From Patescibacteria group bacterium (GTDB taxonomy: Bacteria > Patescibacteriota > Patescibacteriia > JAXHNJ01), in the NCBI GenBank assembly GCA_034520665.1, contig JAXHNJ010000002.1:608660-672659 (forward strand): a stretch of DNA of 64,000 bases, read 5' to 3'. Under the pieces are notes generated by a model. That model was not told where the DNA came from and searched no databases. It saw nothing but the letters and a program-made list of their open reading frames with translations. Position numbers and translations under genes: made by a program. Shown piece by piece: positions 23,958 to 28,415 of this stretch (its first letter is position 1; every line of letters starts with the position of its first letter).

Positions 23958-24962
23958 TTATAAATAACTCAAAGGATTGACTTTACTGCCATTGACCAAG
24001 ACTTCAAAATGAACGTGAGTGCCGGTGCACCAGCCAGTACAACCCATCATACCAATAGTTTGACCCTTAGATACCTGCTGACCGTTTCTCACGTAAAATT
24101 TACTCAAGTGAGCGTAGAGCGTTTGTTTACCGCCGCCATGACTGATAGTAACAACATTACCATAACCCCTTCCCCAGCCTACGCGAGTAATAGTGCCGGC
24201 TTCAGAAGCATAAATCGGAGAGGAATAATTGCCAGTAATATCAATAGCCCGATGACCCCATTTATAATACTGGCTGATTTTTCGGCCAGTCGTGGGCCAA
24301 AGGAGTCGTGAAGTAGCCGGTACTCGGGCTGAAGGCGGAGCTGAAGAAGAAAATACCGAAGCGAAAGTAGAGGTGGTTGTTGGTTTTGGTTTGGGGGGCT
24401 CAATATAGCCGCCGGGAATCATAATTTGTTGACCCTCTTCAATAGCGGAAGCATCAGCTAATTGATTGTATTCCAAAATCTTGCTTTCGTTAGCTTCATA
24501 TTTTTTAGCCAAAGAAGCCACAGTATCACCGCTTTTTACTTTATATAAAACGCCGGAAGTAGGCGGGATAGTTAGGGTTTGGCCCGGCTTAATATAATCA
24601 CTGGAAGAGAGGTCATTGGCCCAGAGAATCGTATTGGTGGATATACCAAATTTAGCAGCAATAGTAGAAACTGTATCTCCGCCTTTGACTTGATAATGAT
24701 CCACTTTTTTCCGAGGTGTGCCAGTAGCGGTAGTGTCAGGGAGAGTAGATTTAACTAAAGCCGTCCCTCCTTCAGCGGTGGATATTTTTGCTTCAGTTTC
24801 TACATTATCTTTATCAGCAAAAATAGGTCCGGCTTTAAGAACGCCAATTTCCTGGCGGTATTCTTTATAACGTGAAATTGTTTCGACCCCTTCTACGGTA
24901 TCACGGTTTATATCTGGTGAAACTAATTTTGAAAAAAGTGTTTTTTCTCCAAATTCCTGCAA
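23958..24962 (-). CDS. LysM-domain M23 family metallopeptidase
   Basis: Two LysM repeats (GDTVSTIAAKFGIS..., GDTVASLAKKYEAN...) and a C-terminal M23 domain (HRAIDI..., GCTGWCTGTHVHFEV); listed start is TTG. Confidence 0.85.
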   Translation of the reverse strand: MQEFGEKTLFSKLVSPDINRDTVEGVETISRYKEYRQEIGVLKAGPIFADKDNVETEAKISTAEGGTALVKSTLPDTTATGTPRKKVDHYQVKGGDTVSTIAAKFGISTNTILWANDLSSSDYIKPGQTLTIPPTSGVLYKVKSGDTVASLAKKYEANESKILEYNQLADASAIEEGQQIMIPGGYIEPPKPKPTTTSTFASVFSSSAPPSARVPATSRLLWPTTGRKISQYYKWGHRAIDITGNYSSPIYASEAGTITRVGWGRGYGNVVTISHGGGKQTLYAHLSKFYVRNGQQVSKGQTIGMMGCTGWCTGTHVHFEVLVNGSKVNPLSYL

Positions 24963-25412
24963 TTTGACTTCACTGGCACTGAGGTTATTAGTAGTTATAA
25001 TAATAGTCAGTAAAATAACTATAAAATGGATAATGTATTTTGAACTAAAAGGATAAAGCAGTTTTCTTTTTAGAGGTAAGTCTAACTGATTAAATTCTTT
25101 TTTTACTATACGGTAAAGTTTATAAAGACCAACTAAAAAAGGTCTAATAATTTTTTTGGTAATAAAAATAAGAGGTTTAAATAGACCAATCTTAAAAAAT
25201 ATAAGCAGGCTTTTAAAAGACCAACCGAAGATTTTTAATATTTTGGCAAAGGTAATTATTAAGTATTTTTTAAGTTTGAATTTGATAGGCTAATTTCCTT
25301 AATTTATTAAATCAAAGATTTCTTCTACTTTATATAAGATAGCCAAAAATATAACAAATAGCAAATTTTCTGTCAATATAGTTATTTGTGAAAAAGCCAA
25401 AATAATGATAAA

Positions 25413-28400
25413 ATGGCTTATATGAGCCAAAAATATGATTTTAGAAAAATAGAAAAAAAGTGGCCACAAAAATGGGCCAAAGAAAAGCTTTTTTCGGCTG
25501 ATGATAAGGCTGATAATAAATATTATTGCCTAATTGAGTTTCCCTATCCTTCAGCTGATGGACTTCATGTCGGCCATCTTCGCAGTTATACGGCTTTAGA
25601 TATTATTGCTCGTAAAAAAAGAATGGAAGGCAAAAATGTTTTGTTTCCGATTGGCTTTGATTCTTTTGGTTTACCCACAGAAAACTACGCCATCAAAGTC
25701 AAAAAGCAGCCGCAAGAGATTACCAGGGAAAATATAAAAAATTTCACCCGACAGCTTAAATCTATGGGTTTTTCTTTTGACTGGGATAGATGTGTTGATA
25801 CCTCTGACCCCGATTATTATAAATGGACCCAGTGGCTGTTTTTAAAATTATACGAAGCTGGCCTGGTTTATCAAAAAGAAAGGCCCATTAACTGGTGTCC
25901 GGCTTGCAAAACCGGACTGGCTAATGAAGAGGTAGTCGGGGGAAAATGTGAAAGATGCGGCGCCGAGGTGAGTAAAAAAAACCAAAAACAATGGCTTTTT
26001 AAAATTACCCAATACGCTGACCGTTTGATTAAAGACCTAGACAAGGTTGATTATCTGGAAAAAATTAAAAAACAGCAGATTGACTGGATTGGCAAAAGCG
26101 AAGGAGCAGAGATAAAATTCCCCGTCTTCGCTAAAGCTTCGACGGGCAAGCAAATTCAAAGTAAAAAATCCCCTTCGGCCTCGAGCTCAGGGCCGAGAGG
26201 CAAAACAAATTCTCAGCCAGAGGCTGATCTGTCTTTGGCGGAAAATAACAAAATTCAAAATTCAACACAGGAAATAAAAGTTTTTACAACCAGACCCGAC
26301 ACTCTTTACGGGGTCACTTATTTGGTTCTCTCGCCGGAACATGAATTTTTGGCTAATGGCTTGTCGCATATTGCTAATCAGAAGGAGGTAGAGCAATATA
26401 TTAAAAAGGCCAAGGCCAAGTCAGATTTGGAAAGGACAGAAAATAAAGAAAAAACCGGTGTAGAATTAAAAGGACTAAAGGCCGTCAATCCGGTTAATCA
26501 AGAAGAGATTCCTATTTTTATCGCTGACTATGTTTTAATGGATTACGGCACCGGAGCCATTATGGCGGTGCCGGCTCATGATCAGCGAGATTTTGAATTT
26601 GCTAAGAAATATAATTTGTCAATAAAAAATGTTATTGAGCCTGAATTCGGAATGAAAAAACCAAATGAAAAATTTAGTCATAGGATAGTGGCAATAGTTA
26701 GAGATCCAAAAAATGATAAGTTGCTTTCATTAAATTGGGCAAAGTATAAAATAGGTCATTTATTTATCGGTGGCGGCATGGAAGAAGGTGAAGATATCAT
26801 AAAAACTGCTATTCGTGAAATTAAAGAAGAAACTGGTTATACTCAGGTAAAACATATAGCGACAGCGGAAAAAGTACGCCATCATTATTACGCTTGGAAT
26901 AAAGGATTTAATAGAGATTCCGAAGCAAGGGGTTTATTATTTGAATTGGTAGGCAGGGAAAGAGTGGAACAAAAATTAGAAGATAATGAAAAAGGAGGAT
27001 TTACAGTTGAATGGATTACTAAAGAAGAGGCCAGTAAAAATGTGATTGATCCTATGCATCATTACTATTTAGATAAATTTATTTTTGGAAAAATTTATAC
27101 TGGTGAGGGTTTAGCCATTAATTCAGGTGAATACAACGATTTAAGCACCAAAGAATTTAAAAAGAAAATTACCCAGTGGCTGAAAAAAAACAAATTAGGC
27201 GGACCGGCCGTTAATTACAAGCTAAGAGACTGGATTTTTTCCCGCCAGCACTACTGGGGTGAGCCAATTCCCTTGATTCACTGTCAAAAATGCGGCGTAG
27301 TTAAAGTGCCGGAAAAAGATTTGCCGGTAAAATTGCCCGAAGTTAAAAATTATGAACCGACTGATACGGGAGAATCACCTTTAGCTAAAATTTCCGATTG
27401 GGTTAATGTTAGATGTCCAAAATGTGGCGAATCCGCAAAACGCGAAACTGACACTATGCCCAACTGGGCCGGTTCCAACTGGTATTTTATTCGTTATTGT
27501 GATCCGCATAACGAAAAAGAATTTGCTTCATGGAAAAAAATGAAAAAATGGCTACCCGTGGATTTATATAACGGCGGTATGGAACACACTACTTTGCATT
27601 TACTTTATTCCAGATTTTGGTATAAAGCTTTAAGTGATTTAAAGTTAGTCCCGGGTGATGAGCCTTACAAAAAACGAGTCTCGCACGGCATGGTTTTAGC
27701 CCAAGATGGGCAAAAAATGTCCAAATCCCGAGGCAATGTGGTTAATCCGGATGAAGTGGTGGATAAGTTTGGAGCTGATGCGCTCCGGCTTTACGAAATG
27801 TTTATGGGACCCTTTGACCAGGCTATTAATTGGAGGGAGGATGGGCTTCAGGGCCTGTTTAGATTTTTAGATAGAGTTAATAAGGTTTTTATAAATATTT
27901 TTTCCATTAAAGATAATTTAAAAGAAAAAAAATCCAGATTAATTCATAAAACTATAAAAAAAGTTGGGCAAGATATAGAAAATATGCGTTTTAATACAGC
28001 TATAAGCACTATGATGGAATATTTTAATGAAAGAGATTTTGCTTCTAAAATAAATGAACAGGGAGAACTTGAGGGAAATGAAATTGATATAAAAGCTATT
28101 CAAAAGTTTTTAATTATTCTCTCTCCCTTTGCTCCGCATTTAGCGGAAGAGCTTTGGCAGAAATTAGGTCATAAAGACTCAATCTTTAAAGAAAAATGGC
28201 CTTCTTATGATAAATCAAAAATAAAAGAAGAAGAAATAGAATTTGTTATTCAGGTTAACGGCAAGGTCAGAGATAAGATTCAAGCCTCGCCAGATATTTC
28301 AGAGAAAGAGGCCCGGGAAAAAGCCTTGGCTTCCAAAAAGGTAAAGAAATTTTTAAAAGACGAACCCAAAAAAGTAATATTTGTTAAGGGTAAGTTGATT

Positions 28401-28415
28401 AATCTAGTAATTTAA
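25413..28415 (+). CDS. leuS: leucyl-tRNA synthetase with an inserted NUDIX hydrolase domain
   Basis: HIGH (PYPSADGLHVGHL) and KMSKS motifs, CP1/editing and anticodon-binding regions; about 140-aa insertion with a perfect Nudix box GGGMEEGEDIIKTAIREIKEETGY between the AVPAHDQRDFEFAKKY and LAINSGEY blocks. Confidence 0.95.
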   Translation: MAYMSQKYDFRKIEKKWPQKWAKEKLFSADDKADNKYYCLIEFPYPSADGLHVGHLRSYTALDIIARKKRMEGKNVLFPIGFDSFGLPTENYAIKVKKQPQEITRENIKNFTRQLKSMGFSFDWDRCVDTSDPDYYKWTQWLFLKLYEAGLVYQKERPINWCPACKTGLANEEVVGGKCERCGAEVSKKNQKQWLFKITQYADRLIKDLDKVDYLEKIKKQQIDWIGKSEGAEIKFPVFAKASTGKQIQSKKSPSASSSGPRGKTNSQPEADLSLAENNKIQNSTQEIKVFTTRPDTLYGVTYLVLSPEHEFLANGLSHIANQKEVEQYIKKAKAKSDLERTENKEKTGVELKGLKAVNPVNQEEIPIFIADYVLMDYGTGAIMAVPAHDQRDFEFAKKYNLSIKNVIEPEFGMKKPNEKFSHRIVAIVRDPKNDKLLSLNWAKYKIGHLFIGGGMEEGEDIIKTAIREIKEETGYTQVKHIATAEKVRHHYYAWNKGFNRDSEARGLLFELVGRERVEQKLEDNEKGGFTVEWITKEEASKNVIDPMHHYYLDKFIFGKIYTGEGLAINSGEYNDLSTKEFKKKITQWLKKNKLGGPAVNYKLRDWIFSRQHYWGEPIPLIHCQKCGVVKVPEKDLPVKLPEVKNYEPTDTGESPLAKISDWVNVRCPKCGESAKRETDTMPNWAGSNWYFIRYCDPHNEKEFASWKKMKKWLPVDLYNGGMEHTTLHLLYSRFWYKALSDLKLVPGDEPYKKRVSHGMVLAQDGQKMSKSRGNVVNPDEVVDKFGADALRLYEMFMGPFDQAINWREDGLQGLFRFLDRVNKVFINIFSIKDNLKEKKSRLIHKTIKKVGQDIENMRFNTAISTMMEYFNERDFASKINEQGELEGNEIDIKAIQKFLIILSPFAPHLAEELWQKLGHKDSIFKEKWPSYDKSKIKEEEIEFVIQVNGKVRDKIQASPDISEKEAREKALASKKVKKFLKDEPKKVIFVKGKLINLVI

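Follow-up and report, generated by a model that had tools for sequence, protein, structure and literature searches.

A predicted Nudix hydrolase domain nested in the CP1 editing domain of a patescibacterial leucyl-tRNA synthetase

Results

We analysed a stretch of 64,000 nucleotides (nt) from a Patescibacteria group bacterium (assembly GCA_034520665.1, contig JAXHNJ010000002.1, positions 608,660 to 672,659 of the forward strand), hereafter called the window, whose own numbering is used throughout. The gene in question is an open reading frame (ORF) of 1000 amino acids (aa) at 25413..28415 on the + strand, like all of its features given below, which codes for a leucyl-tRNA synthetase (LeuRS) and hosts an insert recognized as a Nudix hydrolase domain. 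The NCBIfam model TIGR00396 (leuS_bact) gave the protein 989.9 bits against a cut-off of 548.4, phmmer aligned it with LeuRS from Thermus thermophilus (1H3N) at an E value of 2.3e-209, and Pfam identified tRNA-synt_1, the LeuRS editing domain PF13603 (aa 280-417), Anticodon_1 and NUDIX. Direct reading of the sequence located the HIGH signature of the synthetic site (HVGH, aa 52-55, 25566..25577) and the KMSKS signature (aa 768-772, 27714..27728). The CP1 editing domain is encoded in two parts: the N-terminal part (aa 228-410, 26094..26642) was delimited by Pfam, AlphaFold2 (AF2) and Foldseek, and the C-terminal part (aa 561-612, 27093..27248), running from YTGEGLAINSGEY through YKLRDW, by the alignment with the Thermus enzyme from residue 376 on. 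Direct reading also placed the T-rich motif TTRPDT (aa 292-297, 26286-26303) and the editing motif AVPAHDQRD (aa 385-393, 26565-26591) in the N-terminal part, so that CP1 retains its T-rich region as well as the conserved Asp within (A/G)HDxRD. As judged from these motifs, the host would be a normal LeuRS of the bacterial type, in which the synthetic (HIGH, KMSKS) and post-transfer editing (TTRPDT, GTG, AVPAHDQRD) elements are intact.

The insert interrupts CP1. Window residues 287-410 aligned with Thermus residues 242-364, and window residues 561-778 with Thermus residues 376-594 (phmmer, 1H3N), so that about 150 aa (aa 411-560, 26643..27092) take the place of an 11-aa loop between Thermus residues 364 and 376. 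This loop, a surface β-hairpin loop of the editing domain, lies past the strand downstream of AVPAHDQRD and ahead of ...GLAINSGEY. The first-pass annotation of the window, made from the sequence alone, had placed the insertion at 26640-27115, which was essentially right and is refined here to approximately 26643-27092; it had correctly described a large insertion, although its estimate of about 140 aa has to be raised to about 150 aa. It had also assigned the insert to the short leucyl-specific segment of canonical LeuRS, which does not hold: the PF13603 match (E 5e-60) covers profile positions 15-149 of 185 and is interrupted at 149, within CP1, and the leucine-specific domain is absent from this protein, since only QDGQ lies between GMVLA and KMSKS (approximately 27699-27728, aa 763-772), where T. 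thermophilus has about 50 residues. All of the strings that it quoted were found in the protein: AVPAHDQRDFEFAKKY at aa 385-400, GGGMEEGEDIIKTAIREIKEETGY at aa 453-476, LAINSGEY at aa 567-574, YKLRDW at aa 602-607 and the low-complexity KQIQSKK...EADLS at aa 246-274.

The Nudix signature Gx5Ex7REUxEExGU, which had been reported inside LeuRS, was confirmed by a regular expression that matched exactly at aa 454-476. This Nudix box (GGMEEGEDIIKTAIREIKEETGY, 26772..26840) contains the predicted catalytic residues R468, E469, E472 and E473; a relaxed expression gave no second match across the six frames of the 64-kb window. Pfam detected PF00293 (NUDIX) at aa 426-542 with an E value of 3e-11 in the whole protein, and the insert alone scored 48.1 bits (E 1.5e-12), above the gathering cut-off of 21.1. 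Downstream of the box follows an X-loop, HHYYAWNK (aa 490-497, 26880..26903), in which Y492 and Y493 occupy positions +16 and +17 after the end of the box. Sequence and conservation among homologues define this element, and conservation also marks an aromatic residue located 41 aa after Y493, W534 (27012..27014), which is invariant in the family and by analogy is a candidate second base-stacking residue.

An imperfect 18-nt direct repeat (26625-26642 and 27036-27053, 16/18 matching) has one copy at the 5' junction of the insert, where it reads KNVIEP in translation, and the other close to the end of the Nudix domain, where it reads KNVIDP; an HHYY motif also occurs twice (26880-26890 and 27057-27067). 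We considered a target-site duplication or other scars of a mobile element at the insert borders and rejected them, since there were only short two-copy repeats, probably due to chance, and the 18-nt repeat is not kept in the closest homologue, P0126.

The predicted structure agrees with these assignments. An AF2 model of aa 228-612, built with a 34-sequence alignment, reached a predicted local distance difference test (pLDDT) score of 86.8 and a predicted template modelling (pTM) score of 0.81, with pLDDT above 90 throughout CP1 (up to aa 600) and the insert and below 50 solely at aa 246-280. In Foldseek, its CP1 part superposed on crystal structures of isolated CP1 domains with target-normalized TM scores of 0.76-0.91, and CP1 is therefore predicted to be intact around its guest. 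The model also has the Nudix domain rigidly packed on CP1. The insert modelled alone (35-sequence alignment) gave a pLDDT of 94.2 and a pTM of 0.88, and its best Foldseek match was 2AZW (E 3.8e-10), followed by RppH, NudB, NudI and Ap4A/Ap6A hydrolases. The insert is predicted to adopt the α/β/α fold of Nudix proteins. Pfam, AF2 and Foldseek thus agree with the earlier description of a complete, independent Nudix domain with an intact box in a real LeuRS, and we regard it as almost certain that the insert is a real, folded Nudix domain, that its catalytic residues are conserved and that the CP1 domain around it belongs to a genuine LeuRS.

The same insertion was found in many lineages of the candidate phyla radiation (CPR), where the first-pass annotation had suggested looking for it. 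Searching with the full protein, we considered the best 120 LeuRS hits (48-78% identity), whose sources include Doudna-, Magasanik-, Uhr-, Kerfeld- and Parcubacteria and Minisyncoccia; PF00293 was present in 86/120, a share that is inflated because the query itself holds a Nudix domain. When these 120 sequences were aligned with 12 Bacilli-type sequences, a segment of 148-176 aa occupied the insertion site in 99 of the 132 LeuRS. When 1.84 billion cluster representatives were searched with a profile and without filters, 194 proteins reached E ≤1e-10; among the best 150 of these, 62 were at least 600 aa long, 49 carried a VPAHD-like CP1 motif, and in 37 a Nudix box lay 20-110 residues past that motif. 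Intact LeuRS of 935-940 aa with a Nudix domain at the same position were also present in 10 species-representative genomes of uncultured Bacilli, Mycoplasmatota and Erysipelotrichaceae. The nested Nudix domain is therefore not unique to the window but widespread, both among Patescibacteria and within a clade of gut Bacilli/Mycoplasmatota. When the LeuRS core was used for a rough neighbour-joining tree, CPR and Bacilli sequences fell into separate clades, in each of which insert-free sequences were nested among insert-bearing ones; this suggests an old insertion followed by repeated loss. Some close relatives, such as P0130, lack any insert. The Mycoplasmatota/Erysipelotrichaceae-type LeuRS with a Nudix domain (L007-L010) have HAGH and KMGKR instead of HIGH and KMSKS and form a branch of their own in the core tree.

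Among the 99 insert-bearing LeuRS, the residues of the box were strongly conserved: G454 in 98, E460 in 87, R468 in 89, E469 in 97, E472 in 96, E473 in 97 and G475 in 97. Three residues specific to the family were kept to a similar extent (W442 in 96/99, K497 in 98/99 and W534 in 97/99, the last being invariant in alignment A4), and aromatic residues filled the X-loop positions +16 and +17 in 97 and 88 of these homologues, respectively. The rest of the domain diverges to approximately 30-55% identity among homologues, and even with P0126 the domain as a whole shares 55% identity as compared with 85% for the LeuRS core. A fast-evolving domain with conserved catalytic residues is the pattern expected for an active enzyme under its own constraints. 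The editing residues T297, D390 and D393 were present in all 99 insert-bearing and all 33 insert-free LeuRS, which argues that editing has not been traded away.

Pfam scans and the alignment revealed that LeuRS relatives from CPR bacteria hold guest domains at four loop sites, which we named A to D. Site A, before CP1 (the position of a disordered linker in the window protein), holds a Ham1/ITPase, a serine hydrolase or a further Nudix domain; site B, the CP1 loop, a Nudix domain or, in P0136, a nucleotidyltransferase-like domain (PF10706); site C, after the HCxxCG hairpin, a serine hydrolase; and site D, before the anticodon-binding domain, Ham1. Such mosaic LeuRS (P0213, P0134, P0142, P0144, P0170, P0127, P0136, P0269 and P0315) nest as many as three enzyme domains (Ham1/ITPase, PF06821 serine hydrolase, Nudix, PF10706), with one to three Nudix domains; P0213 (1524 aa) combines Ham1, Nudix and serine hydrolase in one LeuRS. 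An IleRS-like protein with a DUF5915 C-terminus (P0317, 1345 aa) carries a Nudix domain at aa 270-396 and a histidine phosphatase at aa 665-809, and Nudix nesting is thus not confined to LeuRS.

The first search returned as closest relatives of the insert not LeuRS but proteins of 276-296 aa, in which a trimmed CP1 domain carries a Nudix domain at the same site (proteins P0001-P0014; genes at 6001-6855 of L001 and 6001-6831 of L004). In two Bacilli metagenome-assembled genomes (MAGs; GCA_947626095.1 and GCA_947625535.1) this mini-CP1+Nudix gene lies 15-17 nt upstream of an insert-free leuS of 806 aa and overlaps a small membrane-protein ORF. The short proteins are encoded by real stand-alone genes that adjoin complete leuS genes, and an alternative genetic code as the origin of the approximately 284-aa first hits was rejected, since tables 11 and 4 gave stop-to-stop ORFs that were the same or differed just by a short upstream extension. 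A phage origin was also rejected, only partial CP1-like matches having been obtained, two of them to annotated phage leuS, as was a link to defence systems, for which PADLOC gave only a weak generic Nudix match (PDC-S07, 20-29 bits). The Nudix box is always kept in the stand-alone proteins, while the T-rich editing motif is gone in most of them and the P0075 group also lacks the conserved Asp; they are probably not deacylases, and in the Firmicutes proteins CP1 looks like a scaffold for the Nudix domain.

A more distant mini-CP1+Nudix group is common in Clostridia, where P0075 (284 aa) was found on 420 contigs. In Lachnospirales (contigs L048-L052, 5001-5855) its gene comes last in a variable island with a large serine recombinase; the island seems to have inserted into a Zip-family transporter gene, fragments of which lie on both sides in L051. 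Its carriage on a serine-recombinase island suggests that the module is horizontally mobile. Free-standing Nudix relatives of approximately 160 aa also occur in CPR genomes, near clpB and rpmG, and no gene-neighbourhood tie of these to leuS was found. In two long-read metagenome contigs (L053 and L054) a Nudix-bearing LeuRS is split into 3-4 called ORFs by apparent frameshift errors; such splits yield misleading short CP1+Nudix proteins in the databases, e.g. P0110 and P0021.

With respect to the type of Nudix enzyme, a single-sequence search of the PDB gave DIPP2/3 and lupin Ap4A hydrolase as best matches (E ~2e-4), while a search with the family profile ranked the decapping effector AvrM14 first (E 1.5e-9) and then lupin Ap4A hydrolase (4.5e-8), with further matches to NudB, 2AZW, Dcp2, Aquifex Ap4A hydrolase and DIPP1. 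DIPPs also cleave Ap5A and Ap6A. A Tyr or Phe located 17 residues downstream of the box, which stacks with adenine, is common to Nudix Ap4A hydrolases (PMC2425470), and the same hallmark is attributed to Dunn et al. (1999) in PMC5389931; Y493 lies exactly 17 residues after the end of the box at Y476. The X-loop is known to hold the specificity motifs of the ApnA, NADH and ADP-ribose enzymes, the NADH type having SQPWPFPQS and the ADP-ribose type a conserved Pro in the loop past the box (PMC5389931). Direct reading of this loop in the window protein, TQVKHIATAEKVRHHYYAWNKG, found neither Pro nor SQPWPFPQS, and the domain thus lacks the marks of NADH diphosphatases (NudC-type) and of ADP-ribose diphosphatases. 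With curated NCBIfam models it scored below the cut-offs for RppH/YtkD (NF001938, 23.7 bits versus 116; TIGR02705, 21.5 versus 154.4) and for the 8-oxo-dGTPase MutT (TIGR00586, 19.2 versus 97.9; NF008044, 19.3 versus 148). These results are suggestive of a domain that groups loosely with Nudix enzymes cutting polyphosphate-bridged nucleotides (ApnA, PP-InsP, caps).

A second, low-complexity insertion upstream of the Nudix domain, which had also been described before, proved real: at site A, 45 residues (aa 242-286, 26136..26270) that connect the catalytic core to CP1 replace 3 aa in Thermus. The segment is rich in Ser, Lys and Gln, contains no tandem repeats of note, and is predicted to be disordered at aa 246-280, where the pLDDT fell below 50. 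Its length exceeds that in the closest relatives (P0126, P0127 and P0130) by approximately 30 aa, and other CPR LeuRS have a Ham1, serine-hydrolase or Nudix domain of 167-239 aa in its place.

In the surroundings of the gene, a LysM + M23 peptidase gene on the - strand (23958-24962) has a G+C content of 0.41-0.48, above its surroundings, and is followed by a very AT-rich intergenic region of 450 nt ahead of leuS (24963-25412, G+C 0.23-0.26), in which Rfam detected no element. Over the whole window, scans for Rfam families and tRNAs yielded nothing except tRNA-His and tRNA-Arg, both far upstream.

Discussion

Our results suggest that a single gene produces a two-enzyme protein, a normal LeuRS with a complete Nudix domain of approximately 150 aa in the CP1 loop. 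Since the residues needed for catalysis are all kept, we infer that the Nudix domain would be an active, Mg2+-dependent pyrophosphohydrolase. Its substrate would be a nucleoside-5'-polyphosphate linked to a further group X, the purine base being stacked by the +16/+17 aromatics and possibly by W534; dinucleoside polyphosphates (Ap4A, Ap5A and similar compounds) or related non-canonical nucleotides appear the most likely candidates. The Nudix domain is most likely not mechanistically required for aminoacylation or editing, and the same passenger status may apply to the Ham1/ITPase, serine-hydrolase and nucleotidyltransferase domains of sister LeuRS.

We therefore favour, with a probability of roughly one half, a house-cleaning Nudix enzyme that rides a permissive loop of an essential LeuRS in very small genomes. 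Three observations argue that the selected function would be the Nudix activity, with CP1 as its host or scaffold: unrelated hydrolases occupy the same loops, close relatives dispense with the insert, and, when the synthetase body is lost, the Nudix domain persists with just a degenerate CP1. The mosaic synthetases, the stand-alone proteins and the free-standing relatives all point to such a passenger. Tethering to an enzyme capable of making Ap4A may bring an added benefit, which is speculation.

Several observations weigh against this reading. Class Ia synthetases have gained Nudix domains more than once (at LeuRS sites A and B and in the IleRS-like protein), and the CP1+Nudix pair persists as a unit and adjoins leuS on its upstream side; these facts hint that the domain and class Ia synthetases are functionally linked in a way that pure hitch-hiking would not explain. 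The count of Nudix-bearing relatives is subject to the inflation stated above. As regards the substrate, the insert reached the cut-off of no curated NCBIfam subfamily (best scores approximately 20-25 bits versus 95-245 for NudB, RppH, YtkD, NudE and MutT families), the +17 aromatic is a weak predictor of substrate, hydrolases of NDP-sugars, NTPs and DHNTP are found among the structural neighbours with similar scores, and the best structural match, 2AZW, is uncharacterized.

The strongest competitor, which we nevertheless consider improbable, is the in-cis clean-up proposed in the first-pass annotation, in which Ap4A or Ap3A formed by attack of ATP or ADP on Leu-AMP would be hydrolysed at its source by the tethered Nudix domain. 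In its favour, aminoacyl-tRNA synthetases synthesize Ap4A, Ap4A/Ap6A hydrolases and DIPPs are among the nearest sequence and structure relatives of the insert, class Ia synthetases have acquired Nudix domains on repeated occasions, and in Bacilli MAGs the stand-alone CP1+Nudix gene lies directly upstream of leuS. The +17 aromatic is likewise typical of Ap4A hydrolases (PMC2425470). On the other hand, CP1, and with it the Nudix domain, swings away from the synthetic site, serine hydrolase and nucleotidyltransferase domains occupy the same loops without a link to Ap4A, many close relatives do without the insert, and the stand-alone version of Lachnospirales lies on a mobile island far from leuS. 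LeuRS is also not known to be among the strong producers of Ap4A. The proposal is plausible and its Ap4A-type substrate has modest support from the +17 aromatic and the Ap4A/Ap6A hydrolase, DIPP and decapping neighbours, but a hitch-hiker would fit the data at least as well as action in cis on LeuRS products. The further suggestion that aminoacyl-adenylates are cleared is chemically unlikely, because Nudix enzymes cleave a diphosphate bond and Leu-AMP, an acyl-phosphate mixed anhydride, has none.

Less probable still is a role at RNA ends, in which CP1 or LeuRS would serve as a tRNA/RNA platform and the Nudix domain would act like RppH or a decapping enzyme. CP1+Nudix would then be a true two-domain unit, an idea we hold at the same low level, with the CP1 pocket or the LeuRS body holding an adenylylated ligand or the tRNA-Leu acceptor end in place; the Nudix domain might, with no better odds, strip a 5' triphosphate, an Np4 cap or a nucleotide-linked adduct from tRNA-Leu or another RNA. 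The best profile match in the PDB, AvrM14, is a decapping Nudix enzyme, and Dcp2 and RppH were matched as well; NCBIfam reported a weak similarity to RppH and to the 'RNA deprotection pyrophosphohydrolase' YtkD, CP1+Nudix is conserved as a two-domain unit even without the synthetase body, and the pTM of 0.81 suggests a fixed geometry of the two domains. However, the RppH/YtkD scores were 21-24 bits for the insert and up to 31 for the stand-alone protein P0002, as compared with cut-offs of 116-154, and binding of A76 is doubtful in the stand-alone proteins, where the T-rich motif is mostly gone and, in Lachnospirales, the Asp also. Moreover, the free-standing relatives are ordinary small Nudix genes, and CPR tRNAs are not known to retain 5' triphosphates.

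We consider it quite unlikely that the Nudix fold is a non-catalytic module, i.e. a nucleotide sensor or structural prop regulating editing or aminoacylation (cf. CFIm25, NrtR and MRP-L46). The predicted rigid packing on CP1 would suit such a role, but non-catalytic Nudix domains usually lose their catalytic residues, and R468, E469, E472, E473 and E460 were kept in 87-97 of the 99 homologues despite the divergence of the domain. Finally, an artefact in which an assembly chimera or frame error fused a Nudix gene into leuS, the caveat raised with the original observation, did not materialize and can be dismissed: the G+C content falls to 0.31-0.35 in the insert from approximately 0.41 in the flanking CP1 sequence and the 18-nt repeat is present, but the frame is open across both junctions, a separate Logan assembly of run SRR26473340 has a 28-kb contig that codes for the identical 1000-aa protein, the NCBI entry MDZ7799035.1 (Patescibacteria group MAG, 698-kb contig) is 100% identical over 997 aa, the insert recurs at this position in approximately 99 homologous LeuRS, which come from independent samples and two phyla, and AF2 folds CP1 around it with high confidence.

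Whether as a house-cleaning passenger, as we prefer, or otherwise, the nested domain bears on how synthetases are viewed. The editing domains of aminoacyl-tRNA synthetases are held to be conserved and tightly tuned, and here an active-looking second enzyme sits in CP1, in a nesting that affects a large share of patescibacterial LeuRS and a clade of gut Bacilli. These proteins offer a natural test bed for three questions: the coupling of the turnover of Ap4A and nucleotide by-products to charging, the structural load on CP1 that is compatible with swinging between the synthetic and editing states, and the packing of housekeeping enzymes into essential proteins by minimal-genome bacteria. If confirmed, the stand-alone mini-CP1+Nudix proteins would be the first free-standing relatives of CP1. 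Were the RNA-end role true, it would represent a new kind of tRNA/RNA quality control, and the mini-CP1+Nudix proteins, a few of which travel on genomic islands, would stand as the first CP1 homologues to act in trans.

The architecture is visible in databases, as precomputed Pfam hits and as nr and UniRef entries with generic names, yet apparently undescribed. The names of such genes include 'class I tRNA ligase family protein' (MDZ7799035.1), 'NUDIX domain-containing protein' and, for one of the mosaic LeuRS at NCBI, 'non-canonical purine NTP pyrophosphatase', and a practical consequence is that Nudix-bearing LeuRS genes are mis-annotated. Our literature search found no description of a LeuRS with a Nudix domain, of a fusion of an aminoacyl-tRNA synthetase with Nudix, of nested hydrolases in CPR LeuRS or of a free-standing CP1. 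A 2024 review of editing treats CP1 as a cis domain only and lists five trans-editing families, none derived from CP1 (PMC11295145), and a comprehensive review of the Nudix clan from 2017 never mentions tRNA or synthetases.

As compared with canonical bacterial LeuRS (T. thermophilus 1H3N/2BYT; Escherichia coli 4AQ7/4ARI; TIGR00396), the window protein has in common the core, the HIGH and KMSKS signatures, the CP1 motifs and the anticodon-binding domain, and differs in having a 150-aa Nudix domain instead of an 11-aa loop and a 45-aa disordered linker before CP1, and in lacking the leucine-specific domain. With ApnA hydrolases, DIPPs and decapping Nudix enzymes (lupin 1F3Y, T. thermophilus Ndx1 1VC8, Aquifex 3I7U, NUDT3/4, AvrM14, E. 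coli RppH and Enterococcus faecalis 2AZW) the nested domain shares a compact single-domain fold, a complete box and the +17 aromatic. Identity to these proteins is just 13-24%, however, W442, K497 and W534 are specific to the window family, and the comparators are free-standing, whereas this domain is nested in another enzyme. The IleRS with an embedded GNAT domain (NF040702, ileS_w_GNAT) is alike in being a class Ia synthetase that carries an unrelated enzyme domain; both the synthetase and the guest are different, and the window protein scored 93 bits versus a cut-off of 1999, so that the likeness is one of analogy only. Lastly, the free-standing trans-editing factors AlaX, YbaK/ProX, ThrRS-ed and DTD are homologues of editing domains encoded as separate genes, like the mini-CP1+Nudix proteins of Firmicutes; the latter differ in that their T-rich editing motif is mostly lost and a Nudix domain always present.

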